Shown here: piece after piece, positions 1-63,277 of the stretch
How positions within the stretch are numbered: position 1 is the first letter of the stretch
How the letters are laid out: every line of letters begins with the position of its first letter
Sequence record: KX828711
Reading direction: 5' to 3' (one strand)
From: Shigella phage SH7
Length of the DNA stretch: 64,000 nucleotides
Position numbers and translations under genes: made by a program
The notes under the pieces: model-generated
What the model was told of the DNA's origin: nothing
Databases searched by the model: none
The model's input: only the letters and a program-made list of their open reading frames with translations

Positions 1-309
1 ATAATCGTCGTTTAAATAACAGACCGTCCATTCAGGAGAAACAAAATCAGTAAATTCAACGTCAAAATCGCATGTTAATAAATGAATTGATTCAATACTG
101 TTAATAAGTATTCCAGGACGTATTAAAGATTTTTTACCTCTAGAAAATCTTCCAGAAAGACTTTCATCAGTTTCATATGAAGAACCCCAATAATAATTAC
201 GTCCTTCTGCCATACGTTTAAGAGCATTTAATAATTGGTCTGGAACATCAACCTGTCTTTGGAACTCTTCAAACATTGAATTGAAATCACTTTGCATTTT
301 CATTTTCAT
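1..309 (-). CDS. hypothetical protein, N-terminal part only (gene runs off the window start)
   Basis: Minus-strand frame open from ATG near 307-309 (MKMKMQSDFNSMFEEF...) to position 1 with no stop; GGAG-like RBS upstream. Confidence 0.45.
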   Translation of the reverse strand, partial: MKMKMQSDFNSMFEEFQRQVDVPDQLLNALKRMAEGRNYYWGSSYETDESLSGRFSRGKKSLIRPGILINSIESIHLLTCDFDVEFTDFVSPEWTVCYLNDDY

Positions 310-328
310 TCCTATTTACTCCAAGTAA

Positions 329-346
329 TAGGGGCCGAAGCCCCTT
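329..346 (-). terminator. hairpin GGGGCCGAAGCCCC-type, likely terminator after ORF 351..944
   Basis: GC stem with CGAA loop directly 3' of the minus-strand ORF; same hairpin recurs near 40683 and 61163. Confidence 0.4.
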
Positions 347-350
347 ATCA

Positions 351-944
351 TTATTTCAGAGAATTAATGTATTCCTGAACATCAGCAGAGGTAGTTTCAA
401 CCCCAGAAATATTACCGTTAAAGGTTTCAACTCGAGCAAGAGTATCTTCAATATCAACCTTAGTCAGTGCTGCAATTTCAACTACATCATCAGCAGTACT
501 AATTCCGAGGGCATTCGCGGCGCGAGTTTCACGGATATATTCCAATTTAACTGCAAGTTCTTGGCGAGCATCATCTAACTCAACTACTTTCTTGGCGATT
601 TCAATTCGCATTTCAGCATAACCATCAGCTTTAGTAGTTAACTGCTCAGCTGTTCGACGATATAGTAAACCGAGTTTAGCATGCATTGTTACATCTTGAC
701 CTTCGGAAAGAAGCTTGCGAATTTCACGCTCTTTTGATTCGGCCTGTCGATTCTTTTCGACAATAAGTTCACGAATACGCTTTTCTTCATTAATAGATTT
801 AACAGAAGCAGTTTTTAGATCTTTAATCTTATCAAGTAGTTTTGCTGCCGCAGCAGTATACTGTTCTTCAACAGATAGATTTTTAGCCATAGCAGAACCA
901 AGTTTAGTGCGAATAAACTCAACAATTTTCTTCAGTGTGTTCAT
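351..944 (-). CDS. hypothetical alpha-helical coiled-coil protein (197 aa)
   Basis: ORF track; AAGGA RBS; T4-type early promoter-like element upstream; charged heptad-like sequence throughout. Confidence 0.6.
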
Positions 945-970
945 AGTATTTCCTTAGGTTGGTATAATTA

Positions 971-1000
971 GATAATATCACGTTTCTAATAGATTGTAAA
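971..1000 (-). promoter_or_regulatory. T4-type early promoter-like element (GTTTACA, 17-nt spacer, TGnTATTAT)
   Basis: Minus strand reads GTTTACA then 17 nt then TATTAT preceded by TG, about 25 nt upstream of the ORF 351..944 start. Confidence 0.45.
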
Positions 1001-1001
1001 C

Positions 1002-1337
1002 TTATTCTTCGTCTAGCTCGTCGATAAAGGCGTCGATGGCCTCGACAACGGCATCATTGATAGCCAATAAAATAAAATCATCGTCAGTACCTTTAGAAGA
1101 TTCTAAAGCATTGATATATGCTTGGTTGGCGAGTTCCCAAGCCTTTTTAAAATAAGGAGCTTCATCATCGGGGCCAACGAAACGCACGCCTTCAAAGATA
1201 CGGTTAGCATAATCCAATACCCACTGTACAGGCATGTTTTGAGAACGTTCGTTAAACTCTTTAAATTCCTTAGATTCAAAAAGCTCTTCAGGATAATCAT
1301 TTCTATTACAAAAAGCTTTACTAAAGTTACGTTTCAT
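1002..1337 (-). CDS. hypothetical protein (111 aa, acidic C-terminus)
   Basis: ORF track; own early promoter-like element at 1363-1392. Confidence 0.55.
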   Translation of the reverse strand: MKRNFSKAFCNRNDYPEELFESKEFKEFNERSQNMPVQWVLDYANRIFEGVRFVGPDDEAPYFKKAWELANQAYINALESSKGTDDDFILLAINDAVVEAIDAFIDELDEE

Positions 1338-1362
1338 AATGTTTTCCTTGTGATGATAAGTC

Positions 1363-1392
1363 TATAGTAACGCCTTCATACTTAGATGTAAA
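1363..1392 (-). promoter_or_regulatory. T4-type early promoter-like element
   Basis: Minus strand GTTTACA, 17-nt spacer, TACTAT. Confidence 0.45.
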
Positions 1393-1546
1393 CTATTTCA
1401 ACATCGCCTTTTGCTGCTTTATAACCTTCAGCCCAAGATACAACCGAGTTTTTATCTGAAGATTCAAATTCTGGCATTGGGCTTTCGCCAATGTTCACGC
1501 AGTATGTTTCTTCATTTTCGTCGAACCAAATAATTAAAGTAGTCAT
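1382..1546 (-). CDS. small hypothetical protein (54 aa)
   Basis: Hand-translated minus-strand ORF MTTLIIWFDENEETYCVNIG... with GGAG RBS; below the 60-aa ORF-track cutoff. Confidence 0.35.
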   Translation of the reverse strand: MTTLIIWFDENEETYCVNIGESPMPEFESSDKNSVVSWAEGYKAAKGDVEIVYI

Positions 1547-1583
1547 TTATTTCTCCGTTTCTGTATTTGTTTTGATAAGTCTA

Positions 1584-1612
1584 TAATAACACCATCCTTG
1601 GTGTTTGTACAC
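1584..1612 (-). promoter_or_regulatory. early promoter-like element (weaker -35 TGTACA, -10 TATTAT)
   Basis: 17-nt spacing between TGTACA and TATTAT on minus strand upstream of the 54-aa ORF. Confidence 0.3.
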
Positions 1613-1614
1613 AA

Positions 1615-1878
1615 TTATTTCATATTATTGAAATATTCTTCTGCGATTTCGTCGTTATCATGGTAAACTTTAGAAGACAGTTTAACATAACCTTCAGCAG
1701 TGAACATGTTAATCACAACCTTTACAGTATACCACTGACCGTCTTCATTACCCATTACTGCGTAAGTTTCAAACATCGGATGATCAGGACCGATAACTTT
1801 AATATCATTCACTGTACGACCGAAATCTTCTGAAACGCATTTCATAAAGAAGTTGAACAGTTCGCCGTAATTATCCAT
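1615..1878 (-). CDS. hypothetical protein (87 aa; start moved to internal ATG)
   Basis: ORF-track frame 1615..1998, but an early promoter-like element lies inside its 5' part; ATG at 1878 (MDNYGELFNFF...) has a GGAG RBS. Confidence 0.5.
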   Translation of the reverse strand: MDNYGELFNFFMKCVSEDFGRTVNDIKVIGPDHPMFETYAVMGNEDGQWYTVKVVINMFTAEGYVKLSSKVYHDNDEIAEEYFNNMK

Positions 1879-1921
1879 TTCGTTCTCCAAGTTGTTTTCT
1901 GTATCAGTAGTTGATAGTTGT

Positions 1922-1951
1922 ATAGTACCATGGAAGAACAGGGATGTAAAC
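1922..1951 (-). promoter_or_regulatory. T4-type early promoter-like element
   Basis: Minus strand GTTTACA, 17 nt, TACTAT. Confidence 0.45.
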
Positions 1952-2057
1952 AGTTTTGTGAAAAAATTTTTAGGGAATTCTAGGGCGGAGAGGGGCAATT
2001 AAAAGGTAGGATAATATATTATAAAGGGTATAAACTAAATGATGCTTAGAGAGGCCC

Positions 2058-2105
2058 GGAAAGGCCTAGATACCAAAAAGCCCCAACCTTTCGGTCGGGG
2101 CTAAG
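2058..2105 (-). terminator. tandem hairpins then T-run: terminator downstream of ORF 2110..2583
   Basis: GAGGCCCGGAAAGGCCTC hairpin plus AGCCCCAACCTTTCGGTCGGGGCT hairpin, CTTTTT on minus strand. Confidence 0.55.
2074..2105. repeat. direct repeat copy A of a 30-nt terminator hairpin module (copy B at 2630-2660)
   Basis: CAAAAAGCCCCAACCTTTCGGTCGGGGCTAAG versus TAAAAAGCCCCAACCTTTCGGCTGGGGCTAAG, flanking the internal-protein-like gene. Confidence 0.6.
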
Positions 2106-2109
2106 AATG

Positions 2110-2583
2110 TTATTTGATTTGTTTAGCAGACCAAATGCGGTCTTTAATAATTTTTTGGATGTCTTCAACATACTCAAGAGAGTGAGCATGTGGGTTATCT
2201 TTGAAACTATAAGCACGAGCTAGCTTTTGGCCTTCAGTTTTGATTACTAAAAGCTCTTTAAGGATAGCTTCATATTTGGAGATAATTCCTTTAACAATAT
2301 TTTTTTCTTGTGCAGCTTTAGGATCTGCTTTAGGAGCAGGTTTACCCGAAGCCTTTGCAAAAGCAGCGCCAGTAGCAACTAGACTTTTCCAGGCCATACT
2401 AACCGCATTTCCTGTAAATCCTTCTGCTTTCATGTCGCGAGCAAATTGGAATCGCGATTCGTCAGAAGCATCTTTATAGGAATATTTACCCGCGGCAATG
2501 GCAGCTTTTGCAACAGCTTGAATTTCAGTGCTAGATGCTTCATTTAACACCGCTTCATTTAAAAATTGAGCATATGATTTCAT
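2110..2583 (-). CDS. internal-protein-like head protein with N-terminal capsid targeting sequence (157 aa)
   Basis: N-terminus MKSYAQFLNE resembles the T4 internal protein CTS (MK-T/S-Y-x-E/Q-F-I/L-x-E, gp21 cleavage after E); minus-strand TATAAATA late promoter and AGGAAA RBS upstream; Ala/Lys-rich basic body. Confidence 0.6.
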   Translation of the reverse strand: MKSYAQFLNEAVLNEASSTEIQAVAKAAIAAGKYSYKDASDESRFQFARDMKAEGFTGNAVSMAWKSLVATGAAFAKASGKPAPKADPKAAQEKNIVKGIISKYEAILKELLVIKTEGQKLARAYSFKDNPHAHSLEYVEDIQKIIKDRIWSAKQIK

Positions 2584-2619
2584 CTTATTTCCTGTTTTAA
2601 TTCGTGGTTTTAATATACT

Positions 2620-2627
2620 TATTTATA
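2620..2627 (-). promoter_or_regulatory. late promoter TATAAATA
   Basis: Exact TATAAATA on minus strand about 35 nt upstream of the ATG at 2583. Confidence 0.55.
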
Positions 2628-2629
2628 CT

Positions 2630-2660
2630 AAAAAGCCCCAACCTTTCGGCTGGGGCTAAG
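2630..2660 (-). terminator. hairpin AGCCCCAGCCGAAAGGTTGGGGCT then T-run (near-identical copy of 2074-2105)
   Basis: Stem-loop followed by TTTTT on minus strand; closes the noncoding stretch downstream of the tRNA operon. Confidence 0.55.
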
Positions 2661-2960
2661 CCTTGCGGCAACCTTGTCGGGGTTCCACCTGCTAAGGCAA
2701 GTGTTTGTACGAAACGCCGGGATTCGAACCCGGTTACCAAGCAGTTGACGCTACTCAATATTTTTAAAAGGCCATATCTCGACCATATCCGAACGTTCCG
2801 TCAAAAACGCTACTCGGCTTACGGCAAAGATATTTCCTCGAATCGATAATTCGGTGCGCCGTTTCTGCTGTGATATAAGGGGACATTAACAGATCGTAAA
2901 GATTTGTTAATGCCAGTCCTTAAACAGGGAACATCAGTCCGACGACTTACCGGTAGCGAC
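2661..2960 (-). ncRNA. structured noncoding region, possible small stable RNA(s) or tRNA relic
   Basis: About 300 nt with no credible ORF between the 116-aa ORF and a terminator; contains a canonical tRNA T-arm (CCGGGTTCGAATCCCGG) without a full cloverleaf, an 8-bp hairpin at about 2884-2912 and a repeated GAGTAGCGT motif. Confidence 0.35.
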
Positions 2961-2968
2961 CCGGTTTC

Positions 2969-3319
2969 TTAATATTCTTTTAAAGCATCAATCTGTTCAC
3001 GACGTTTACGCCATAAATCAATTGCTTCATACGCAGATTCAGCATTTCGAATTGGACGGCATTTATATAAAGACTTGTGATTTTGATATTGCGTAGATAA
3101 CGGAATTTTATCTAAAAGGTCTTTACGTTCAAAGTATTCGTAACCATCTAAGCCAAATGAACGATTTTTGAGAAATTGCCAATGACCATATTCGTTTTCG
3201 ACATAAACATAATCCGCGTGTTGATAAAGCAAATTAATTACACGTTCAGAAATAATAGTGTCATTGTGATTAAAATAAAATGTTAAATCATGAACTACTA
3301 AATAAACATTACCTTTCAT
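2969..3319 (-). CDS. hypothetical protein (116 aa) immediately downstream of tRNA-Arg
   Basis: ORF track; GAGGAAA RBS; no separate promoter, so probably co-transcribed with the tRNA operon. Confidence 0.55.
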   Translation of the reverse strand: MKGNVYLVVHDLTFYFNHNDTIISERVINLLYQHADYVYVENEYGHWQFLKNRSFGLDGYEYFERKDLLDKIPLSTQYQNHKSLYKCRPIRNAESAYEAIDLWRKRREQIDALKEY

Positions 3320-3335
3320 ATTTTCCTCACTTAAT

Positions 3336-3411
3336 TGGTCGAGGCAGTAGGGATCGAACCTACGACCTAGGACTTAGAAGGTCCTTGCTCTTCCTTCTGA
3401 GCTATGCCCCG
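3336..3411 (-). tRNA. tRNA-Arg (anticodon UCU)
   Basis: Hand-folded 76-nt cloverleaf: 7-bp acceptor stem, anticodon loop CUUCUAA, T-loop TTCGATC, CCA encoded. Confidence 0.8.
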
Positions 3412-3415
3412 TAAT

Positions 3416-3491
3416 TGGGGTGACCGATGGGAGTCGAACCCATGACTACGAGAATCACAATCTCGAGTTCTACCAACTGAACTACGGCCAC
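3416..3491 (-). tRNA. tRNA-His (anticodon GUG)
   Basis: 76-nt cloverleaf, anticodon loop UUGUGAU, discriminator C, CCA encoded; no encoded G at -1. Confidence 0.6.
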
Positions 3492-3604
3492 ATTAATACC
3501 TACTCCAACAATCAAGATGTCTTCACACGAAATTAAGAGAAGAGTGATCAGTTCAACCCCGATAATCGCGTCAAGTAGATATTAATGTGACAGTTGTCAC
3601 AAAT
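3492..3604 (-). other. 113-nt spacer inside the tRNA array with no cloverleaf; possible small stable RNA
   Basis: tRNA-sized gap between tRNA-Asn and tRNA-His; contains the inverted repeat TGTGACA-N2-TGTCACA next to the tRNA-Asn 3' end. Confidence 0.3.
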
Positions 3605-3680
3605 TTGGCGGACGTGATAGGATTCGAACCTATAACCAATCGCTTAACAGGCGATCGCTCTGCCATTGAGCTACACATCC
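3605..3680 (-). tRNA. tRNA-Asn (anticodon GUU)
   Basis: 76-nt cloverleaf, anticodon loop CUGUUAA, T-loop TTCGAAT, CCA encoded. Confidence 0.75.
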
Positions 3681-3684
3681 AAAT

Positions 3685-3771
3685 TGGTGGGGAGTGATGG
3701 AGTCGAACCACCCGAGTCGCAATGACAATGGATTTACAGTCCACACCGCTACCTCTACGGGATAACTCCCC
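3685..3771 (-). tRNA. tRNA-Tyr (anticodon GUA), long variable arm
   Basis: 87-nt type II cloverleaf, anticodon loop CUGUAAA, acceptor GGGGAGT/ACTCCCC, CCA encoded. Confidence 0.7.
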
Positions 3772-3784
3772 TTAATTCTTAATT

Positions 3785-3859
3785 TGGTGGCCCTAGGTGG
3801 AATTGAACCACCATCTGGCGATTATGAGTCGCTTGCTTGAACCTTCCAGCTACAGGGCC
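3785..3859 (-). tRNA. tRNA with CAU anticodon (Ile lysidine-type as in T4, or Met)
   Basis: 75-nt cloverleaf, anticodon loop CUCAUAA; sits at the position of T4 tRNA-Ile in the conserved order. Confidence 0.7.
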
Positions 3860-3860
3860 T

Positions 3861-3936
3861 TGGTGCTGATTGACGGAATCGAACCGCCGACCTTCTCATT
3901 ACAAGTGAGTTGCTCTACCTACTGAGCTAAATCAGC
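3861..3936 (-). tRNA. tRNA-Thr (anticodon UGU)
   Basis: 76-nt cloverleaf, anticodon loop CUUGUAA, CCA encoded. Confidence 0.8.
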
Positions 3937-3941
3937 AAAAC

Positions 3942-4031
3942 TGGCGGAGGCAATAGGATTTGAACCTATGAGTCGCCGGAGCGACTGCCGGTTTTCAAGA
4001 CCGGTGCATTAAACCACTCTGCCACGCCTCC
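3942..4031 (-). tRNA. tRNA-Ser (anticodon UGA), long variable arm
   Basis: 90-nt type II cloverleaf GGAGGCGTGGCAGAGTGG..., anticodon loop CUUGAAA; matches recalled T4 tRNA-Ser. Confidence 0.85.
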
Positions 4032-4033
4032 AG

Positions 4034-4107
4034 TCTCCATACAAGGATTTGAACCTTGGACCTCCTGATCCCAAATCAGGCGCTCTACCAAACTGAGCTA
4101 CACGGAG
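4034..4107 (-). tRNA. tRNA-Pro (anticodon UGG), CCA not encoded
   Basis: Cloverleaf CTCCGTGTAGCTCAGTTTGGTAGAGC..., anticodon loop UUUGGGA. Confidence 0.85.
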
Positions 4108-4117
4108 TAAATTAAAT

Positions 4118-4191
<74 letters not shown>

Positions 4192-4196
4192 AAATT

Positions 4197-4283
4197 TGGT
4201 GCGAGAAGTGGGACTCGAACCCACAAGGAAATCATTCCGCAGCATTTTAAGTGCTGTGCCTTTACCAATTTGACCATTCTCGC
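4197..4283 (-). tRNA. tRNA-Leu (anticodon UAA), long variable arm
   Basis: 87-nt type II cloverleaf GCGAGAATGGTCAAATTGG..., anticodon loop CUUAAAA, CCA encoded. Confidence 0.85.
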
Positions 4284-4284
4284 G

Positions 4285-4357
4285 CTGGGAATAAAGGACT
4301 CGAACCTTTGCATCCTGGAATCAAAATCCAGTGCCTTACCAACTTGGCTAATTCCCA
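4285..4357 (-). tRNA. tRNA-Gln (anticodon UUG), CCA not encoded
   Basis: Cloverleaf TGGGAATTAGCCAAGTTGG..., anticodon loop UUUUGAU. Confidence 0.85.
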
Positions 4358-4368
4358 ATTATTAACAA

Positions 4369-4386
4369 AGGCTCTTAAGCAAGAGC
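4369..4386 (-). other. hairpin GGCTCTT-AAGC-AAGAGCC between the middle promoter and the first tRNA
   Basis: 7-bp stem followed by T-rich run on minus strand; could terminate the upstream small-gene operon, attenuate, or mark a processing site. Confidence 0.35.
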
Positions 4387-4420
4387 CCTTGATGATAGAG
4401 GGTATTAATCAGTGCGATAT

Positions 4421-4458
4421 GAGTTAATAATAACAAATAATTCTTAAAGCATATTTAC
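4421..4458. repeat. repeat copy A of a 35-nt middle-promoter module (copy B at 63247-63285)
   Basis: 29 identical nt TTAATAATAACAAATAATTCTTAAAGCAT plus matching flanks at both loci. Confidence 0.6.
4427..4452 (-). promoter_or_regulatory. MotA-dependent middle promoter-like element upstream of the tRNA operon
   Basis: Minus strand TATGCTTTA (MotA box) then 12 nt then TATTAT; same module repeated upstream of gene 31. Confidence 0.5.
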
Positions 4459-4742
4459 CATTTATGATAATACATATTTACGATGCATTCAAGACCCAAA
4501 GGATTTTTGAAAATATCATATTCAAGAGGACCTTTTTCTGTTTCGATAAAGAAATCAAAATTTACTGTATTAAATTTACGGTCTTCCTTCACTAATTTAA
4601 CTTGTGAAGATGAACGGTCAATGTAAACCTTTTCAACTTCAAAATATGTTAAAATGCCATAATCATCAATCAAGGCTTTAGCTGCTTCTTGATCATATTT
4701 ATATCCATTTTCAATGGATGATACTTTCGCATAAAGAATCAT
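4455..4742 (-). CDS. hypothetical protein (95 aa from ATG; ORF-track start is a TTG two codons upstream)
   Basis: ORF track; in the variable tRNA-to-ipI interval. Confidence 0.5.
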   Translation of the reverse strand: MILYAKVSSIENGYKYDQEAAKALIDDYGILTYFEVEKVYIDRSSSQVKLVKEDRKFNTVNFDFFIETEKGPLEYDIFKNPLGLECIVNMYYHKW

Positions 4743-4744
4743 TA

Positions 4745-5125
4745 TCAACCTTCATCAACAATAGTATGCGTATTGGCATTTACAATTTGCCACCAATCAA
4801 AGCGATTAGAACCATAATCTGGTTTGTTTTCATTTTCTTTGATAATGTCACGGAGTTCATCTTCGGTAGCGGCTTTCGCTATTAAATCAGCATATCCACC
4901 ACGAGGATAATAATTATCACCTGCAAAAAGTAAAAAGTTTGGTTTAATGTTATTGAACTCTTCAAGAGTAATAACTTTTCCTGACGGTTGAACAATCTCT
5001 ACATATTTATATCCCAATTTTTGAGCAGCATCTACTGCTTCAAGCAAAGTATCATGAGCCCATCCAATTTGACAACCTGGCTTTTCAGATGGATTAGCCT
5101 GATAATCCGCATACACTTTATACAT
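4745..5125 (-). CDS. hypothetical protein (126 aa from ATG; ORF-track start is TTG)
   Basis: ORF track; ATG MYKVYADYQ... preceded by AGGTG RBS, 1 nt after the stop of the upstream ORF. Confidence 0.5.
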   Translation of the reverse strand: MYKVYADYQANPSEKPGCQIGWAHDTLLEAVDAAQKLGYKYVEIVQPSGKVITLEEFNNIKPNFLLFAGDNYYPRGGYADLIAKAATEDELRDIIKENENKPDYGSNRFDWWQIVNANTHTIVDEG

Positions 5126-5126
5126 T

Positions 5127-5312
5127 CTATTCACCTTTAGAAATTTTATCCATAACGATAGCAATTAAACCAATTAAAAATGCTACTACAAGTGAAAAAA
5201 CATTTTCTGCTGTAGTCAATAATCCGCATATAAATCCAACAAACATTGAAAAACTAAAAGCGGAAGCAGAAATTGCAATAGCAACATTTCGAATTAATTC
5301 ACAACGTTTCAT
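5127..5312 (-). CDS. small predicted membrane protein (61 aa)
   Basis: Two hydrophobic segments (AIAISASAFSFSMFVGFICGLL and VFSLVVAFLIGLIAIVM); GAGGAG RBS; early promoter-like element upstream. Confidence 0.5.
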   Translation of the reverse strand: MKRCELIRNVAIAISASAFSFSMFVGFICGLLTTAENVFSLVVAFLIGLIAIVMDKISKGE

Positions 5313-5340
5313 TTTATTCTCCTCGGTAGTTGATAGGGTA

Positions 5341-5370
5341 ATAGTATCACTACTAAAACCCTATGTAAAC
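5341..5370 (-). promoter_or_regulatory. T4-type early promoter-like element
   Basis: Minus strand GTTTACA, 17 nt, TGATACTAT. Confidence 0.45.
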
Positions 5371-5388
5371 AACTTTGTGAAATATTTA

Positions 5389-5676
5389 TTACAAAAGATT
5401 TTTAGCAATAATCTTGAGATGTGCCGCAGAAATGTGTTTAGCTTTAAACAACGCAGTTTCTTCAGCAGGAGAGATAATGATTGTAGCACCATCCTTTTTA
5501 GCAGACCACCCATCACCTAGGTAAACAGTACCTTTGATTTCTTCGCCATCAACCAAGCTAATCATTGGTTTACCTTCTCGTCCTTTATTTGCTTTAATAA
5601 CTTCAGAAGTAAGAGTAGCTTCAGTAATAGTAGAAACCGGGGTAGTTGTAGAAGTAAACTCTTTGAAAGTTTTCAT
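5389..5676 (-). CDS. ipI: internal protein I-like (95 aa) at the ipI locus, with CTS-like N-terminus
   Basis: Position between tRNAs and gene 57B, 95 aa as for T4 IPI precursor, N-terminus MKTFKEF...; identity to T4 IPI not verified. Confidence 0.65.
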   Translation of the reverse strand: MKTFKEFTSTTTPVSTITEATLTSEVIKANKGREGKPMISLVDGEEIKGTVYLGDGWSAKKDGATIIISPAEETALFKAKHISAAHLKIIAKNLL

Positions 5677-5708
5677 TTTTTATTTTCCTAATTAATTTTG
5701 ATGAGATA

Positions 5709-5738
5709 ATAGTATCACTACCTCATCAGCATGTAAAC
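5709..5738 (-). promoter_or_regulatory. T4-type early promoter-like element upstream of ipI
   Basis: Minus strand GTTTACA, 17 nt, TGATACTAT. Confidence 0.45.
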
Positions 5739-5750
5739 AACTTTGTGAAA

Positions 5751-6447
<697 letters not shown>

Positions 6448-6448
<1 letters not shown>

Positions 6449-7161
6449 TATAGTACCTTTAGTGTATTTTTAATTTTAGAAAAAAGTTCTTCAAGAGAAC
6501 CGTCGTTTGTAATTACTAAATCGCCATCACGAATTGGCAATCCAGCTTCTGTAATATGTGTATCATTGGATTTTTGACCAGGACGAACTACATGAATTAC
6601 TGTAGCACCCATCGCCCTAGCCGCATCCATTTCATGATCTTGACGAGTATCAGGAACGATATAATAATCATAACCTGAGTTAAATTTATCAAGATAATCT
6701 AAAGCAAATAATTTTACCCAATACATGCGGTCGAAGTTATTAACAATCAAATCCGTACCTAGGGCTTGCATCAGACGACGGACTGACCATTGATCTTCAA
6801 TATTATTTATAACGTCAGTAATCTTGTTAAATGCTACGAAATTAACTGCGTCATCAAAAACAAACACACCTTTAATTGGGCTTTTACTATTAAGATAGCA
6901 AAATGCTTGTTCCATAATCGTAATTACTTCTAATTTAGTCAGATTTAAATTAGTCTCACGATCATAGTTAATTCCTTCAAACTCTTTACGAGTTAAGCAA
7001 GGATAGTCAGTGTTTGCTGCAAATACACCCCATGCATAAGCCAATGCATCCTTAATAGGACCAGCAAGTTGATATTTAACTGCAGAATAATTATTCATGA
7101 TAAAATCTGCAGTAGTATCTTTTCCACTACGCTTTACACCACTTAAAAAGATTAGTTTCAT
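6448..7161 (-). CDS. 1: deoxynucleoside monophosphate kinase gp1
   Basis: P-loop-like GVKRSGKDT near N-terminus; size and position match T4 gene 1. Confidence 0.9.
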
Positions 7162-7186
7162 ATGTTTCTCCTCAAATTTAGTTAAG

Positions 7187-7212
7187 ATTATAACACATGA
7201 AACTGAAGCATT
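7187..7212 (-). promoter_or_regulatory. MotA-dependent middle promoter-like element for gene 1
   Basis: Minus strand AATGCTTCA then 11 nt then TATAAT, upstream of gene 1 ATG. Confidence 0.5.
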
Positions 7213-7741
7213 AAACTTCTGCTATAATTTTGCCATCTTTTTCTACTTGAAAATACGTATAAGGAATCGTTGCTGTGCATACTAAGGCTGGGTCTGAATC
7301 TTCTGTGTAGCTAAATTCTACTTCAGACAGGTCAGAAACCCAAGGCTTATAAAAGTTTATTGACATCACGATTTCAGTTTTACTATTATCTAAAATGTAA
7401 AGTGTAATGTATTCAGGACCTGTTTTTTGGGCAGTATTTTCGCCTGTAAGATAGTTACTAGTTCCTAGCATCCATTCATACATTCCTATCCATGACTTAA
7501 GCTCTTCATCAACTATAAATCTCACGATGAGTGGATCGTACTCAAATGTAACTCCTGGACGTTGTGCTCTGCCTAGTCCAAACGGCCCAGTCACGGTATC
7601 AGTAACAGGTATTCTAATTCCCGGAATAGGAACTGACTGAGCATTTAAAGTAAAAGCAGATGTAGTATTACTATGTGGTATTGATACTACAAAGTTAGTT
7701 GTATTTGCTTGGTTAAAAATTTGTTGCAGTGCTTGCGACAT
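7211..7741 (-). CDS. 3: gp3 tail completion / sheath stabiliser (176 aa from MSQALQQ...)
   Basis: ORF-track frame 7211..7822; start placed at the internal ATG with GAGGAA RBS, giving the T4 gp3 length. Confidence 0.8.
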   Translation of the reverse strand: MSQALQQIFNQANTTNFVVSIPHSNTTSAFTLNAQSVPIPGIRIPVTDTVTGPFGLGRAQRPGVTFEYDPLIVRFIVDEELKSWIGMYEWMLGTSNYLTGENTAQKTGPEYITLYILDNSKTEIVMSINFYKPWVSDLSEVEFSYTEDSDPALVCTATIPYTYFQVEKDGKIIAEV

Positions 7742-19309: not shown

Positions 19310-21114
19310 TGAAACAAAATATTAATATCGGTAATGTTGTAGATGATGGTACCGGTGACTACCTGCGTAAAGGTGGTATAAAAATAAATGAAAACTTTGA
19401 TGAGCTTTATTATGAACTCGGTGATGGTGATGTTCCATATTCAGCCGGTGCCTGGAAAACTTATAATGCTTCATCAGGACAAACATTAACAGCAGAATGG
19501 GGAAAATCATATGCCATTAACACTTCATCTGGAAGAGTAACTCTGCAACTTCCTAAAGGAACCGTTAATGATTATAATAAAGTAATTAAAGCTAGGGATG
19601 TATTTGCAACATGGAATGTTAATCCAGTTACTCTAGTAGCCGCTTCTGGTGATACTATTAAAGGATCATCGTCATCAGTTGAAATTAATGTCCAATTTAG
19701 CGATTTAGAGTTAGTTTATTGTGCTCCAGGACGTTGGGAATATGTCAAAAACAAGCAAATTGACAAAATTATTAGTTCAGATATTAGTAATGTAGCACGT
19801 AAAGAATTTTTAGTCGAAGTTCAAGGACAAACAGACTTTTTAGATGTTTTCCGTGGAACTAGCTATAATGTTAATAACATCCGAGTAAAACACCGCGGTA
19901 ATGAATTATATTATGGCGATGTATTTAGTGAAAACAGTGACTTTGGCTCTCCTGGGGAAAATGAAGGAGAATTGATTCCTCTTGATGGATTTAATATTAG
20001 GTTAAGACAGCCTTGTAATATTGGTGACACTGTTCAAATTGAAACATTTATGGATGGTGTATCACAATGGAGAAGTTCATATACAAGACGCCAAATAAAA
20101 GTATTAGATTCAAAATTAACGTCAAAAACTTCTTTAGAAGGAAGTATTTACGTTACTGATTTATCAACAATGAAATCAATTCCATTCTCTGCATTTGGAT
20201 TAATTCCTGGAGAACCTATTAATCCTAATTCTCTTGAAGTTCGTTTTAATGGAATTTTACAACAACAAGCTGGAACAGCCGGATATCCTCTGTTTTTGTG
20301 TGAAGGTGCTAATTCAGATACGCAAGCAGGATGTATATCTCTTGGTGGTGAATGGAAAGAATCGAATACAGATTATTCTATAGAATATGAAGATGGAAAA
20401 CCTGTCAGTCTTTTATTTGATAGAAAATTTGAATCCGGCGATATAATCGTTATAACATGGTTCAATAATGATTTAGGAACTCTTTTAGAAAAAGATGACA
20501 TTATTGAATTAACTGATGACCGTTATGTTAGTAAAGGATCATCTACTGAAGTTACTGGTGATGTAGCCTTAACAGATTTTGATAAAATCGGTTGGCCAAA
20601 TGTTGAAAAAGTTGATTCTTATACTAGAACGTATAATTCAATATCATCTATTTTCGACAGCATTTATCCTGTTGGTTCAATTTATGAAAATGCTATAAAC
20701 CCAAATAATCCGGTGACTTATATGGGATTTGGTTCATGGAAATTATTTGGTAAAGGGCAGGTTTTAGTAGGATGGAATGATGATGTTACAGATCCAAACT
20801 TTGCATTGAACAATAATGATTTAGATTCTAGCGGAAATCCTTCACATACCGCCGGTGGAACAGTTGGTACAACATCAGTAACGCTTGAAAACGCAAATCT
20901 TCCTGCGACTAAAACTGATGAAAGAGTTTTAATTGAAGACGAAAATGGATCAGTTATTATTGGAGGATGTCAATATGACCCAGACGAAACTGGTCCTATA
21001 TATACAAAATATCGTGAAGACTACGCAACAACAAACTCTTCACATACTCCTCCTACTAATATTAGTAATATTCAACCGTCTATTACTGTATACCGTTGGA
21101 TAAGGATTGCATAA
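19309..21114 (+). CDS. 10: gp10 baseplate wedge protein
   Basis: 601 aa, TAATG overlap with gene 9. Confidence 0.95.
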
Positions 21115-26561: not shown

Positions 26562-29702
<3,141 letters not shown>

Positions 29703-40682: not shown

Positions 40683-40699
40683 AGGGGCCGAAGCCCCTG
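40683..40699 (-). terminator. hairpin GGGGCTTCGGCCCC after hoc
   Basis: GC stem-loop immediately 3' of hoc on the minus strand. Confidence 0.45.
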
Positions 40700-52711: not shown

Positions 52712-52733
52712 ATGGGGACCGAAAGGTCCCCAT
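52712..52733. terminator. bidirectional terminator between gene 54 and the alt block
   Basis: ATGGGGACC-GAAA-GGTCCCCAT hairpin flanked by T/A runs, between convergent genes. Confidence 0.7.
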
Positions 52734-53059: not shown

Positions 53060-53089
53060 ACTATAACACAACACGAGGGACTTGTAAAC
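53060..53089 (-). promoter_or_regulatory. T4-type early promoter-like element
   Basis: Minus strand GTTTACA, 17 nt, TATAGT, overlapping the 3' end of the Alt paralog. Confidence 0.45.
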
Positions 53090-55146
53090 TACATTTTGAA
53101 CTTTTTAGACATTCCGTTAATGTTAACCAAAGAAGCTAAGATTTGAGAAACTTCGTTTTCCTCTTCTTTTGATTCTTCTACAAGGAATTGATTAAATCCA
53201 GCCATTGGACGAACTTCACCAGTTTCCATTAGATGGTCGCCATCATATACTGATTCTTCTAATTGTTCAGAAGGAGGAACGATTGTACCTTCGATTAGAT
53301 ACTTGTTATAAGCAGTTTCTTTCATAAAGTAAGTACTTACTTTATTAATCTTCAGTAAAATTCCACGTGGTAGAATAACTTCAGCTTCTGATGGAAATCC
53401 TGATAAATGACCCGGAACGATAACTTTAACTCGTTCAGCTCCTTTAATTACCATACCCACGCTAGTTTCAGCATCTTCATTAGCATATGTAGAATGACTA
53501 CCCATATGCATCAAATCTTCTGCATCAACGGAACCTTCTCCTTCACCAGAAAATACTGCTCCGGAATCATCTAAGGCCATATAATTTTTACCATACTCAC
53601 CAAAGATATTTGGTTTAAGTGATGTAGATACGAAGTTCTTGAAATAGAACATTTTATTTTCAATGTTATGACGCAAAGTTTTAAAAGTAACTTCTTGTCC
53701 ACGGTAAAGTGTAGTTCCTGGAGGAAGAACTGAACCTTTAGCAAACGCAGAATCCATAGTCTCGATGTGCTTAATAGCGCGCTCCATGTATTCTTCACGT
53801 GTAGAATCAGGTTTACCTAAAAGGAATGAGTTCATTTCAACATACGAATCTGCACAATAATCTTCAATTACATCAGATTCAGCCTGAGTCAATCCTTTTG
53901 GAGTTACTTCAGTGCTTGCATATTCATACGCCTGAGCAGCGGATTCATCAATTAATTTATAAATGCCATTCATGACAAATTGAATAATAGCTGTCTTTTC
54001 ATCTGGCGTAGCTTTAGAACCTTTAACTAAATCATTGACAATTTTCTTAATAACATCAAAGCTATTAGAAATATTAATGTCAGCAAGATCGCTTAAAATT
54101 TTATCAGTTTTATAATCAAAAAATTCTTTATTCTTTAAATATTCTTGAGAACTTTGATATGTTATATCGCTCTGCAACTTGATAGATGGATCACGTAAAC
54201 GTGCATGGGCTAATGCAATATGACTTCGGAAGCTTTCTAGTTCATAATCACTAGATTTAAAACGAGAAGCACTCCTCATATCACCGATAGCTCCTTTGCC
54301 GAAGTTTGAACCAATCTGAATAACGCCAGAGTTCATTGGTCCTTCTGCTTTATATACCGGAACTTTAGATTCAAACTCTTGATATTTCTTAGCAGCAAAG
54401 CTATCACCCTGAAGTGAAGCATCAACAGTAGAATATTGAGCTTGTGCTGCTAATCGACGACTAATTTTAGTTTTCTGAATAACAGCTTGATCCGTACGCT
54501 TATCATTTTCTAAAGCAATAGAAGCAGCAACTGCGACAGCTTTAGGAACAGCATTACCTGTTTTAACGTCTACATAAACATCACCGACTTTCGATTCAAC
54601 TTTTGTGAATAACTCAGTTGAAATAGGAGGTACACCTGGAATGTCTTCTAAATTGGCATTTTTACGGTAAACCATAATATATGCATATTTCTTATCATAG
54701 TCCCAGATTTCCTTTAAAAGAACATATCGACCTGCTCCTTTAGTACGTACTAAACGGTCAGCAATAACTTGCATTTGACGAGCAGCGCCATTTGTTTTAC
54801 TTTTTAGTACGCGGAATAGGCATGCATCAATTTTATACTGTTTCATTGTTTGAAGAGCAGTATCAAAAACAGCATTAATGACGCCAATTGGATTTCCACC
54901 CAAGTTTTTAAGCTTAACTAATGATAATTTTTCATTAACACCTATCATTACGATATGCATCATTTTGTCGCCTGGCTTAACGTTTTTATTCGTATCACCG
55001 CCAGAGGTGTATGTACAAAATCTAAATCCAGGAAGCACGCTTTCTTCACCGGCTTGAATAGCAAAAATTTGTGGTATTTTATGCTTAGGATTTAAGTTAA
55101 CAACCGGCGCCGAAGCGCCGTCAAATAATTCTGTAATAAGTTCCAT
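53089..55146 (-). CDS. Alt-family ADP-ribosyltransferase paralog (685 aa), tandem to alt
   Basis: Same N-terminus MELITELFD and conserved first 240 aa as the adjacent alt; divergent middle; C-terminal ART-like core with R (LYRGQ), STS (FVSTSL) and ExE (SEAEVILPRG); AAGGA RBS 3 nt after the alt stop. Confidence 0.85.
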   Translation of the reverse strand: MELITELFDGASAPVVNLNPKHKIPQIFAIQAGEESVLPGFRFCTYTSGGDTNKNVKPGDKMMHIVMIGVNEKLSLVKLKNLGGNPIGVINAVFDTALQTMKQYKIDACLFRVLKSKTNGAARQMQVIADRLVRTKGAGRYVLLKEIWDYDKKYAYIMVYRKNANLEDIPGVPPISTELFTKVESKVGDVYVDVKTGNAVPKAVAVAASIALENDKRTDQAVIQKTKISRRLAAQAQYSTVDASLQGDSFAAKKYQEFESKVPVYKAEGPMNSGVIQIGSNFGKGAIGDMRSASRFKSSDYELESFRSHIALAHARLRDPSIKLQSDITYQSSQEYLKNKEFFDYKTDKILSDLADINISNSFDVIKKIVNDLVKGSKATPDEKTAIIQFVMNGIYKLIDESAAQAYEYASTEVTPKGLTQAESDVIEDYCADSYVEMNSFLLGKPDSTREEYMERAIKHIETMDSAFAKGSVLPPGTTLYRGQEVTFKTLRHNIENKMFYFKNFVSTSLKPNIFGEYGKNYMALDDSGAVFSGEGEGSVDAEDLMHMGSHSTYANEDAETSVGMVIKGAERVKVIVPGHLSGFPSEAEVILPRGILLKINKVSTYFMKETAYNKYLIEGTIVPPSEQLEESVYDGDHLMETGEVRPMAGFNQFLVEESKEEENEVSQILASLVNINGMSKKFKM

Positions 55147-55149
55147 GAT

Positions 55150-57207
55150 TTATCCTTGAACGAACTTGTAAGGCATGTTTGTAATATCTATGCAAGACGC
55201 AATAATTCCAAGAGATGATTCTACTTTCTGTTTAACATTTGATGAAACAAATGATGCAAAGTCAACTCTGTCTTCTATTTCAATATCACCTGTCATTGCA
55301 ACCAATTCACCAGTTTCCATTAGACGGTCACCGTCATAAATGACTGATTCGGTGAGTTCTTCCGTAGTCATAACTTCAGCTTGAATAAGCTTGTTGTTAG
55401 TTTTGACTGTTCCATCATTGTAAGATGCATCAGTTATTTTATTAACTTTGACCATTAATCCACGTGGCAAAATGACTTCCATTTCATTTGAAGGCGCTAA
55501 ACTTCCGCCTGGTAAAACAACATTGACTTTATCAGCCCCAGTAATAACCCATCCAATTCCGACTAAATTATCGCTAGAATTAACAAGCCCTTCATCATTT
55601 TTATCGATAGAAATGTTTAGACGCTTTTCATCTGGTAAAACACCAACAGCTGAATCAGTCATCCAAGTACCAAAAATGTTTGGATATAATGATGTTGATA
55701 CAAAATTTCTAAAATAAAAAACTCGATTTTTTACCAATGCTTCATATATTGAAGGTAACATTCGCTGTGAACGATATAAAGTAATACCCTTTGGCAATCG
55801 ATCACCATTTTTAAAGGCTGAATCTAAATTATCGATGGCTTGTTCTATTTCAGGTGCTGTTAAAATACTTGTACGCTCATCTGGATTATATAATCCCAAA
55901 AGAGCATTATTCATGTCTACATATCCTGAACCTACATATTCACGAATTCCGCGTTTTTGCGCTGGCGTGTATTTAGATGAATCTTTATTTTCGACTATAG
56001 AATGCAATGACCATCCAACAGTAAGAGCATATCCACGTAATTCTCTTCGAATAATCTTTGTTTTTATTGCATTCCAAGAATTTTGCACTAACTCATTATT
56101 CGCAGTGTCTTGATTTAAATGCGAATGCTTGTTAATATTTCTTTCTAACCAAGCACCTTTATATTTTTCTAAAGTATCATCGACTATAGAAGCAATAGTT
56201 TCTAAAGTTTTTATTGAAGTAATAGATTCTTTTCGTAATCTTTCTAAAGCTTTATTTTTTATTTCTGTATTAACATCAGATTCTTTATCTTCAGGAATTA
56301 TAGAAGCTTCTCTGAATGCCATTCCAGCTGTAACACTATTAAGAGCATTCTCTAATGCAAATCCTGAAGTAGAAATAACAGTTAATTCATTAGCATCAGA
56401 AATTAAAGGAGCGTCAGCGGGTTTATTTAATTCTGCTGCTGAAGCCTCAAATTTTTGAAACATCGGCGTTTCAAATCTAGAAGATTCCAACGACTGACTT
56501 TGTGCAATTGCTCTACGGGAAATTTTAACTTTAACGATTACAGCTTGGTCAGAACGTTTATCATTTTCTTGTGCAATAGATGCTGCAATTGCCTCATTTT
56601 TAGTTACTTGGGCTCCAGTATCTTTATTGATATAAACATCACCGACCTTCGATTCAACTTTAGTAAAGAGCTCGGTACTAATTTCCGGAACTCCTGGAAT
56701 GTCTTCTAGTGATACATTTTTGCGATGTATAAGAATATATGCATACTTTTTATCATAATCCCAGAGTTCCTTAAGAAGGACGTATCTGCCACCTGAACGA
56801 CTACGGATAAGTCTATCAGCAATAACTTGAATTTGTCGAGCTTGGCCAGCAGTTTTAGACTTAAGAATACGAAGCATACAAGCATCAATTTTATACTGAC
56901 GCATCGTTTGCATTGCAACAGTAAAAACTGAATTGATATAATTAATTGGGCTTGGACCAAGACCTTTTAATTTAGCAATTGAACCTTTAGCAGTTAATGT
57001 AAAAGGAACAATATGCATCATTTTATCGCCCATTTTTAAATCGCGATTAGTATCACCTCCAGATGTATAGGTACATAAACGAAAGCCTGGTTGTTCAATT
57101 GCGTCATCGACATGAACTGAAAAAATTTGTGGTATCTTCTTCTTTGGATTTAAGTTTGTAATCGGAAGAGTAGTATCTTCGTCAAATAATTCTGTAATAA
57201 GTTCCAT
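55150..57207 (-). CDS. alt: Alt ADP-ribosyltransferase (packaged in the capsid, modifies host RNA polymerase)
   Basis: 685 aa from second ATG; recognised as T4 Alt-like; ART motifs LYRSQ, FVSTSL, NEMEVILPRG; late promoter upstream. Confidence 0.92.
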   Translation of the reverse strand: MELITELFDEDTTLPITNLNPKKKIPQIFSVHVDDAIEQPGFRLCTYTSGGDTNRDLKMGDKMMHIVPFTLTAKGSIAKLKGLGPSPINYINSVFTVAMQTMRQYKIDACMLRILKSKTAGQARQIQVIADRLIRSRSGGRYVLLKELWDYDKKYAYILIHRKNVSLEDIPGVPEISTELFTKVESKVGDVYINKDTGAQVTKNEAIAASIAQENDKRSDQAVIVKVKISRRAIAQSQSLESSRFETPMFQKFEASAAELNKPADAPLISDANELTVISTSGFALENALNSVTAGMAFREASIIPEDKESDVNTEIKNKALERLRKESITSIKTLETIASIVDDTLEKYKGAWLERNINKHSHLNQDTANNELVQNSWNAIKTKIIRRELRGYALTVGWSLHSIVENKDSSKYTPAQKRGIREYVGSGYVDMNNALLGLYNPDERTSILTAPEIEQAIDNLDSAFKNGDRLPKGITLYRSQRMLPSIYEALVKNRVFYFRNFVSTSLYPNIFGTWMTDSAVGVLPDEKRLNISIDKNDEGLVNSSDNLVGIGWVITGADKVNVVLPGGSLAPSNEMEVILPRGLMVKVNKITDASYNDGTVKTNNKLIQAEVMTTEELTESVIYDGDRLMETGELVAMTGDIEIEDRVDFASFVSSNVKQKVESSLGIIASCIDITNMPYKFVQG

Positions 57208-57230
57208 CATATCCTCTCTAGTGTTTATTC

Positions 57231-61162: not shown

Positions 61163-61178
61163 TAAGGGGCCGAAGCCC
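61163..61178 (-). terminator. hairpin GGGGCTTCGGCCCC after ORF 61189..61554
   Basis: Third copy of this GC hairpin, at the 3' end of a minus-strand gene. Confidence 0.4.
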
Positions 61179-61188
61179 CTGTTTTATT

Positions 61189-61591: not shown

Positions 61592-61620
61592 ATAATATCA
61601 TATCCTGTACCAAAGTAAAC
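61592..61620 (-). promoter_or_regulatory. T4-type early promoter-like element with -10 inside an 8-bp inverted repeat
   Basis: Minus strand GTTTAC, 17 nt, TATTAT; the -10 lies in the loop of GGTACAGG...CCTGTACC at about 61585-61615. Confidence 0.45.
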
Positions 61621-61955: not shown

Positions 61956-61983
61956 TTTATTCTCCTTTGTTTGTGTAAGATAA

Positions 61984-62012
61984 TACTATCACAAAGGAAC
62001 CATACTGTAAAC
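61984..62012 (-). promoter_or_regulatory. T4-type early promoter-like element
   Basis: Minus strand GTTTACA, 17 nt, TGATAGTAT. Confidence 0.45.
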
Positions 62013-62065
62013 AACTTTATGCAATCTTTGGAAAATAAAAAAGGACTCCCGAAGGAGTCCTCAAC

Positions 62066-63220: not shown

Positions 63221-63250
63221 CGTTTTTCCTTTTTGTTAACAGATGAATTA

Positions 63251-63277
63251 ATAATAACAAATAATTCTTAAAGCATT
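63251..63277 (-). promoter_or_regulatory. MotA-dependent middle promoter-like element for gene 31
   Basis: Minus strand AATGCTTTA then 12 nt then TATTAT; near-identical to the module upstream of the tRNA operon. Confidence 0.5.

Follow-up and report, generated by a model that had tools for sequence, protein, structure and literature searches.

The stretch of DNA analysed here, 64,000 nucleotides from Shigella phage SH7 (sequence record KX828711; hereafter the window, numbered from its first letter), carries a series of small minus-strand genes, several of which are preceded by copies of one short element. An initial annotation, made from the sequence alone, had described this element as an early promoter that, combined with a stem-loop, forms an architecture proposed to drive the modular shuffling of accessory genes. 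In this work, we describe the element, the genes and hairpins around it, and its counterparts in related phages.

The window is DNA of a T4-like coliphage (Tequatrovirus). Megablast of positions 1-6300 matched 1172 phage records, nearly all from T4-like coliphages or Shigella phages, with Escherichia phage 4E10 as the top match (97% identity, 96% query coverage). Comparison with the T4 annotation identifies 1-7200 as the e.5-e.8 / tRNA / ipI / 57B / gene 1 region and 52.7-64 kb as the alt / gene 30 / 30.x / gene 31 early region. Read along the minus strand, the first of these contains the end of e.5, then e.6, e.7, an open reading frame (ORF) of 54 aa, e.8, a 157-aa ORF and rnaC/rnaD-like RNAs, followed by a 116-aa ORF, 11 tRNAs, trna.2, trna.3, trna.4, ipI, 57B, 57A and gene 1; the 54-aa, 157-aa and 116-aa ORFs are extra compared with T4. 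The genes relevant to the following are:

351-944, minus strand: e.6 orthologue, 197 aa
1002-1337, minus strand: e.7 orthologue, 111 aa
1382-1546, minus strand: 54-aa ORF, PHROG 5461, without assigned function
1615-1878, minus strand: e.8 orthologue, 87 aa
2110-2583, minus strand: 157-aa ORF with an internal-protein-type leader
2634-2968 (approx.), minus strand: rnaD-like and rnaC-like stable RNA region, aligned to T4 rnaD/rnaC
2969-3319, minus strand: 116-aa ORF, PHROG 3355, without assigned function
3336-4357, minus strand: cluster of 11 tRNA genes
4455-5312, minus strand: trna.2, trna.3 and trna.4 orthologues, a single operon behind the promoter at 5341-5370
5389-5676, minus strand: ipI (internal protein I; Pfam IPI_T4, nuclease inhibitor)

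The repeated unit and its match to T4 early promoters

As first written, with a 17-nt spacer between GTTTACA and TGnTAyTAT, the motif has no match in the window. The correct geometry is GTTTACA-14 nt-TGnTAyTAT, which places the hexamers TTTACA and TAyTAT 17 nt apart, and with this correction the repeated element proves to be real and in excess over chance: there are four exact matches, and eight copies with at most two mismatches compared with 0.78 expected, a number reached in none of 100 shuffles. The copies named in the initial annotation were located correctly to within 1-2 nt, as judged by motif search of the window. A relaxed scan adds two more, at 61592-61620 and 7187-7216, for a total of ten. 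A repeat search independently recovered several of these sites, as a 54-nt family termed D1 (1911-1964, 5330-5383 and 5698-5751) and a 50-nt pair termed D2 (1348-1397 and 1567-1616; 72% identity over 50 nt). The ten predicted early promoter units are:

972-1001, minus strand: unit before e.6, GTTTACA-N14-TGATATTAT, with its -35 box right after the e.7 stop codon
1364-1393, minus strand: unit before e.7, GTTTACA-N14-CGTTACTAT, without TGn; right-hand D2 repeat of the 54-aa cassette, with its -35 box within the final codons of the 54-aa ORF
1583-1612, minus strand: unit of the 54-aa cassette, GTGTACA-N14-TGTTATTAT; left-hand D2 repeat
1922-1951, minus strand: unit before e.8; member of the D1 family
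5341-5370, minus strand: unit before the trna.4-trna.3-trna.2 (and tRNA) operon; D1 reference copy
5709-5738, minus strand: unit before ipI; D1 copy with 81% identity to the 5341-5370 reference
7187-7216, minus strand: early-type promoter before gene 1, GTTTAAT-N14-TGTTATAAT; missing from the initial list
53060-53089, minus strand: unit before the 96-aa ORF located after the alt paralogues; its GTTTACA begins with the G that ends the upstream TAG stop
61592-61620, minus strand: unit before a 121-aa ORF, GTTTACT, 16-nt hexamer spacing, TGATATTAT
61983-62012, minus strand: unit before a 110-aa ORF

All ten copies lie on the minus strand and are confined to the two early-gene blocks, with none in the late block from 7.3 to 52.7 kb. 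The -35 element is an exact GTTTAC in eight copies, GTGTAC in one and GTTTAA in one, and the hexamers are separated by 17 nt in nine copies and by 16 nt in the remaining one. The -10 boxes read TAYTAT, TATAGT, TAGTAT or TATAAT, and an extended -10 TGn is present in nine of the ten, the unit at 1364-1393 having CG in its place. A GGAG/AGGA-type Shine-Dalgarno sequence (SD) plus ATG follows 25-43 nt past the -10 box in every unit. An A/T-rich upstream stretch (ttt(t)cacaaa(g/a)(t/c)t before GTTTACA) is clear at the units ending at 1951, 5370, 5738 and 62012; those ending at 1001, 1393 and 53089 are preceded by the last part of a coding sequence, which shows no marked A/T richness. A generic sigma-70 scan gave counts no higher than shuffles (29 vs 24; 43 vs 45), so that only the specific T4-type element stands out; generic scanning for sigma-70 promoters and terminators was powerless in the window, its counts equalling those of shuffled sequence. 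The element is also less pervasive than had been claimed. Rather than each small gene, 7 of the 13 minus-strand protein genes in 351-7161 have their own copy (e.6, e.7, the 54-aa ORF, e.8, trna.4, ipI and gene 1), and the 157-aa ORF, the 116-aa ORF, trna.2, trna.3, 57B and 57A have none.

The repeated elements match the T4-type early promoter, whose consensus is reportedly laid down in the work of Liebig and Rueger in 1989 and of Wilkens and Rueger in 1996; their activity in this phage we infer from T4. They share with T4 early promoters the -35 element GTTTAC(A/T), the 17-nt spacer, TGn in nine of ten copies and a -10 box of the form TAnnnT, as well as a conserved A/T-rich upstream stretch in the best-conserved copies. 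We see no substantive difference, only single window copies with GTGTACA, with GTTTAAT, without TGn or with 16-nt spacing. In T4, the combined UP/-35/TGn/-10 early promoter outcompetes host promoters for sigma-70 RNA polymerase (Hinton 2010, PMC2988021). A time-resolved T4 transcriptome classes the RNAs of e.6, e.7, e.8, trna.2-4, ipI and gene 1 all as early, and the window copies precede orthologues of early-RNA T4 genes at the same genomic positions. A search of the literature for genome-wide T4 start-site maps found nothing usable.

Could the units instead be MotA-dependent middle promoters or late promoters? Sequences of these kinds do occur nearby, a TGCTTTA box with TATTAT at ~4421-4452 and ~63245-63276 and TATAAATA at 2620-2627. 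However, the ten units themselves have a GTTTAC -35 element at 17-nt spacing, with neither a TGCTT box at -30 nor TATAAATA, and the T4 orthologues of the genes behind them have early RNA. A middle or late identity was rejected on the basis of the GTTTAC -35 element and the missing TGCTT box and TATAAATA, and we regard it as barely conceivable.

Over ~32 nt the two sites with the TGCTTTA box are nearly identical, ATGCTTTAAGAATTATTTGTTATTATTAA, both on the minus strand, one before the tRNA cluster and the other before a 111-aa gene 31-like ORF. With TGCTTTA, 12 nt and TATTAT, they look like a MotA-box middle promoter.

Gene cassettes and their breakpoints

The interval from e.8 to e.6 differs in gene content among close relatives. 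T4 and 4E10 have the order e.8 / e.7 / e.6 and do not contain the 54-aa ORF. RB14 has e.8 / 54-aa ORF / e.6, with e.7 absent, and the Mosigvirus HX01 has an unrelated 101-aa gene (gp044) / 54-aa ORF / an unrelated 75-aa gene (gp046) / e.6. In the window, the order is e.8 / 54-aa ORF / e.7 / e.6. Modular variation, which the initial annotation had proposed, is therefore seen directly as four arrangements with breakpoints at promoters (read from alignments for 4E10, RB14 and HX01), and the identical gene order in all relatives that had been set beforehand as the refuting outcome of the synteny comparison is not what we find. The genes also differ in their spread: e.6 is carried by 1098 phage records, the 54-aa ORF by 274 (including Mosigvirus) and e.7 by 157, and the junction of the 54-aa ORF with e.7 found in the window occurs in 27 phage records only.

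The edges of the 54-aa cassette can be placed to the base. All three cassettes align from their own -35 box (TGTACA, directly past the stop codon of the preceding gene) up to the next promoter's TTTACA, and their flanks are unrelated outside those -35 boxes. In the window, T4-type megablast homology ends at 1348, the SD of e.7, and RB3/PST-type homology ends at 1387, the final base of GTTTACA. As homology ends at the -35 boxes, the 54-aa cassette spans the DNA from one -35 box to the next.

Further cases involve other units. In 4E10, the e.6 promoter is replaced. In RB14, the extra internal-protein gene Ip5 lies between 123-nt direct repeats that are 87% identical (L004 342-794) and consist of the stop region, the promoter, the 5' untranslated region (5'UTR) and the first leader codons. 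The RB14 ipI promoter is chimeric (L004 689-740), joining a trna.4-type spacer to an ipI-type downstream part, which implies a crossover within a promoter unit. Finally, the e.8 unit (window 1880-1964) and the unit upstream of T4 imm.1 (L006 ~27010-27100) are nearly identical over ~75 nt that span the spacer, the -10 box and the 5'UTR, with the two sites 43 kb apart in T4.

We read the elements, with a probability of about 0.88, as T4-type early promoters that also serve as short homologies for cassette recombination. Each comprises an A/T-rich upstream stretch (in the better-conserved copies), a -35 element GTTTAC(A/T), a 17-nt spacer with TGn and a -10 box TAyTAT. Going by established T4 biology, it would be used within minutes of the start of infection, by host sigma-70 RNA polymerase that is still unmodified. 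It would fire a short early transcript that starts a few bases past the -10 box, with SD and ATG 25-43 nt downstream. Because the same 30-55-nt unit is found at one gene boundary after another, and its -35 box is often joined to the preceding gene's stop codon, its copies may additionally act as short recombination homologies, at which promoter-plus-ORF cassettes would be inserted, deleted or swapped. This reading starts from what the sequences display, namely the signature, positions and orientation of the units, their excess over chance and the coincidence of breakpoints with -35 box and SD; that recombination at the repeats caused the rearrangements is what we infer from them.

The recombinational half of this reading has a competitor, in which the elements are early promoters and nothing else. 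Gene content would then change through homing endonucleases or illegitimate recombination, with the changes surviving between genes, where promoters lie, and the units would resemble each other through convergent or purifying selection for maximal polymerase binding. Several observations speak for such a scenario and weigh against ours. Unit similarity could persist by selection for polymerase binding alone, and the coincidence of breakpoints with repeats does not establish a causal role for the repeats. Of the four large differences that separate 1-7.2 kb from T4, two, the 116-aa ORF (tRNA-Arg/rnaD) and the tRNA/segB difference, are bounded by tRNA or stable-RNA genes and not by promoters, and T4 carries the homing endonuclease gene segB at the tRNA region. 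The 157-aa cassette is bounded by a duplicated terminator rather than by promoter units. The RB14 junction of the 54-aa ORF with e.6 has just a 12-nt gap between TTTACA and TATAAT, which is not a clean homologous exchange, and at the 54-aa cassette perfect homology extends over no more than 7-13 nt, with 72% identity over 50 nt. On the other side, breakpoints are base-exact at the GTTTACA edge and at the SD instead of being spread over intergenic DNA; the e.8 and imm.1 units share ~75 nt, including spacer and 5'UTR, beyond what polymerase contacts need; the RB14 Ip5 repeats extend over 123 nt, and the RB14 ipI promoter is chimeric. In addition, mini-circle junctions within such units have been shown experimentally in RB49/phi1. 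A purely promoter role thus seems to us unlikely, while keeping a real share of the probability.

The junctions not made by promoters deserve a closer description. The 157-aa ORF is surrounded by a duplicated GAAA-tetraloop terminator (repeat D3), the copies of which are 92% identical; T4 has one hybrid copy, at the rnaC end.

2070-2105, minus strand: downstream D3 terminator copy
2625-2660, minus strand: upstream D3 terminator copy, the 3' end of the rnaC-like RNA

Judging from these sequences, the D3 duplication looks like the trace of an insertion or deletion event in which terminator copies recombined with each other. The 116-aa ORF is inserted precisely between tRNA-Arg and the rnaD-like RNA and has no promoter of its own, so that it would be expressed from the tRNA precursor transcript. 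The 11 tRNA genes of the window are T4's 8 plus Tyr, Asn and His; segB is missing from the window, and the tRNA difference falls in the region where T4 carries this homing endonuclease gene. The 11 tRNAs were the sole Rfam matches, neither the rnaC/rnaD-like RNAs nor the hairpins corresponding to a family, and the 114 nt between tRNA-Asn and tRNA-His (3492-3605) gave no tRNA or Rfam call.

Stem-loops and the comparison with PeSLs

A hairpin shared by three gene ends had been proposed as the second part of the architecture. The hairpin itself is clearly present: the 14-mer GGGGCCGAAGCCCC occurs exactly at 331-344, 40684-40697 and 61166-61179, three copies compared with 0.01 expected. In its sense-strand form it reads AGGGGC-UUCG-GCCCCU on the minus strand, as three identical 16-mers:

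330-345, minus strand: UUCG hairpin that follows the e.6 stop codon and precedes the e.5 SD/ATG
40683-40698, minus strand: UUCG hairpin past a minus-strand stop codon, followed by a T-rich tail
61165-61180, minus strand: UUCG hairpin separating two 30.x-region ORFs, with SD/ATG right behind it

UUCG hairpins are generally enriched, with nine in the window that have a stem of at least 5 bp compared with 0.63 expected. What did not hold is their proposed pairing with the promoters, as no GTTTACA promoter lies beside the GGGGCTTCGGCCCC hairpin at any of the three copies. The GGGGCUUCGGCCCC hairpins are a separate class outside the promoter unit, very stable C(UUCG)G tetraloops, which most likely act on RNA as attenuators, terminators or barriers to decay. 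C(UUCG)G tetraloop hairpins of T4 mRNAs were reportedly described by Tuerk and co-workers in PNAS in 1988, and the window hairpins, with a G/C stem closed by C-UUCG-G and an intercistronic or 3'-end position, show no difference from them.

This bears on the proposal that the units are complete PeSLs (promoter early stem-loops), mobile terminator-plus-promoter cassettes in which a G/C-rich stem-loop is the recombination target and the GGGGCTTCGGCCCC hairpins are the stem-loop halves. What defines a PeSL is a stem-loop that resembles a terminator and immediately precedes the promoter (Arbiol et al. 2010, PMC2839356; Comeau et al. 2014, PMC4122927), and the PST/T4-type PeSL promoter consensus is TTTACW-N17-TAYWAT (Comeau et al. 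2014, PMC4122927). The window units fit the T4 and PeSL promoter consensus, with deviations in the -10 box at 53060-53089 (TATAGT) and 61983-62012 (TAGTAT), and like PeSLs they carry SD and ATG at their 3' end and cluster in variable early regions, where they sit at the breakpoints of indels and replacements that distinguish close relatives. One of them goes further: unit 61983-62012 has a terminator hairpin just upstream, GGACTCC-TTCG-GGAGTCC followed by T6 (62041-62062, 25 nt away), and the two together have the sequence of a complete PeSL-like composite. Mosigvirus HX01 has a GTTTACT promoter behind a GGGGACTTCGGTCCCC hairpin, and in the window hairpin terminators are duplicated around the 157-aa cassette.

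For the remaining units, the stem-loop part of the architecture did not hold. The hairpin before the unit ending at 62012 is the only one placed just upstream; a second unit, ending at 1951, would count only loosely, its terminator lying 128 nt upstream. In seven of the nine units cited in the initial annotation (those ending at 1001, 1393, 1612, 5370, 5738, 53089 and 61620), the -35 box touches or overlaps the stop codon of the preceding gene, which leaves no space for a stem-loop ahead of the promoter. Most window units differ from PeSLs in this fusion of -35 box and stop codon, and also in that their inverted repeats, where present, sit inside the unit around the -10 box. None of the three GGGGCTTCGGCCCC copies adjoins a GTTTACA promoter, and these hairpins were accordingly rejected as stem-loop halves of the units. 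Arbiol et al. (2010, PMC2839356) themselves term the T-even elements analogues, and not homologues, of PeSLs. The positions of the hairpins largely refute the full-PeSL reading for the window, and we consider it improbable overall. The overlap of the -35 box with the stop codon in seven units means that they are better described as T4 early-promoter homology blocks.

Under this description, the closest precedent is the internal-protein (IP) loci of T-even phages, where homology blocks of ~70 bp are said to flank the IP genes (reportedly Repoila, Tetart, Bouet and Krisch, EMBO J, 1994). Several features agree: the window units 5330-5383 and 5698-5751 flank ipI, RB14 Ip5 lies between similar repeats that reach into the conserved MKTFKEF leader, and weak A/T-rich stem-loops overlap the early promoter. 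In contrast to these blocks, such units are used in the window outside IP loci too, at e.6-e.8, 30.x and alt. Use beyond IP loci has already been noted (Comeau et al. 2014, PMC4122927).

The stem-loops inside the units are short inverted repeats of 6-10 bp, found in several units, mostly bracketing the -10 box and varying in sequence from unit to unit. They occur in the window at 5341-5370, 5709-5738, 61592-61620, 61983-62012 and 1583-1612, and in T4 (L006) at 20612, 7215 and 2458. The -10 box is surrounded by TAGGGT/ACCCTA at 5341-5370, by TGATGAG/CTCATCA at 5709-5738 and by the 8-bp repeat GGTACAGG/CCTGTACC at 61592-61620; in the inverted repeat TCCTTTGT/ACAAAGGA, at 61983-62012, the 3' arm covers the SD. 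The best stems of the ten window units sum to 62, compared with 46-47 +/- 3 for shuffles and random genomic 45-mers, of which 0 in 1000 attain this sum. Ten further units, taken independently from T4 1-50 kb, sum to 55, compared with 45.5-47 (reached in 3/1000 shuffles and 24/1000 random 45-mers). These inverted repeats are probably the 'weak stem-loop' already present in the literature.

Two observations from the alt end of the window may be added. A palindromic hairpin, ATGGGGACC-GAAA-GGTCCCCAT, lies at 52712-52733 between a convergent plus-strand gene (end 52709) and the minus-strand 96-aa ORF, and its sequence makes it a likely bidirectional terminator. Further along, two Alt-like ORFs of 685 and 686 aa stand in tandem on the minus strand (53089-55146 and 55150-57210) with a mutual identity of 42%; T4 has one alt gene.

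Protein leads and significance

The small genes had been described as having no recognisable function, which is true of most of them but not of ipI. Pfam, NCBIfam and PHROGs assign no function to e.6, e.7, e.8, the 54-aa, 116-aa and 157-aa ORFs or trna.2-4. Only ipI belongs to a named family, the nuclease inhibitor family IPI_T4 of Pfam; the restriction enzyme GmrS/GmrD is the target that IPI* blocks. Leads exist for two more, the 157-aa ORF through an IP leader and e.6 through a likeness to PspA/Vipp1.

The 157-aa ORF opens with MKSYAQFLNE|A, a start that can be aligned to the leaders of T4 IPII and IPIII, RB14 Ip4 and Ip5, and RB14ncORF136c and is of the T-even capsid-targeting type (MKTYQEFIAE-like, with the protease site after E). 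The ORF is absent from T4, has no early promoter unit and is preceded by the late-promoter consensus TATAAATA at 2620-2627. It has 510 matching records, and among the 40 of these matches that were listed, all are annotated as hypothetical. The combination of a capsid-targeting leader with a late-promoter consensus makes it a probable internal head protein that has escaped annotation; it is a candidate injected internal protein.

The 197-aa e.6 protein, initially described as a coiled-coil protein, was included among the accessory genes, where it does not belong. With 1098 phage records that reach out to Aeromonas phages, it is nearly universal in T4-like phages and is not accessory. The family is closed, forming only 45 clusters at 50% identity. 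AlphaFold (AF2) places helices at 3-22, 25-80, 86-145, 156-175 and 186-196, with a mean confidence score (pLDDT) of 74.7 and values above 85 over the helical hairpin. This layout follows the plan of PspA, Vipp1 (IM30) and ESCRT-III proteins, with an N-terminal amphipathic a0, a long a1/a2-3 hairpin and shorter a4 and a5. In a Foldseek search with the e.6 model, all of the top eight PDB matches were Vipp1, and in a viral library a phage PspA/IM30 protein and a Snf7 protein came directly after the first six phage proteins, of which one bears the label tail completion protein and five are uncharacterised or unnamed.

Profile comparisons gave a mixed picture. A broad e.6 profile (A6) searched against the PDB found Vipp1/PspA in eight of the top nine places (best E 1.2e-4), co-linear over 1-146 and with a high coiled-coil bias. 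Aligned with enterobacterial PspA by hhalign, e.6 reached a probability of 68.8% (E 4.5e-5, 168 columns) against a PspA profile that is shallow, as the search seeded with E. coli PspA gave only relatives at least 86% identical. A narrow e.6 profile (A5) reached at best E 1.4-3.4, and hhalign assigned the narrow e.6 alignment a probability of 0.5% when it was compared with one E. coli PspA sequence. Pfam PF04012 did not match e.6, and PDB sequence searches with the single e.6 and e.8 sequences gave no matches. Two recent surveys of the PspA/Vipp1 family do not mention phage members of the e.6 kind. On balance, we give a little better than even odds to e.6 belonging, as a phage protein that has diverged strongly, to the PspA/Vipp1/ESCRT-III superfamily of membrane-remodelling proteins.

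What do these findings mean for T4-like phages? Early promoters are textbook T4 biology, and the cassette model has already been published (1994, 2010, 2014), including for T4's closest relatives. The value of the units is that of an annotation aid, as promoter copies mark transcription units and likely cassette boundaries in variable early regions. Our comparison adds base-resolved cases, a cassette running from -35 box to -35 box in four neighbourhoods and two genera, a terminator-bracketed cassette and a chimeric promoter, which illustrate the published model and leave it unchanged. The lead on e.6 is the only part that might repay experiment: the protein is almost universal in T4-like phages yet has no assigned function, and its PspA/Vipp1-like reading is testable. 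If this reading is true, T-even phages would supply their own 'phage-shock-protein-like' factor from an early promoter, and e.6 would stabilise or remodel the inner membrane during infection, for example in lysis inhibition or against membrane-depolarising abortive-infection effectors.

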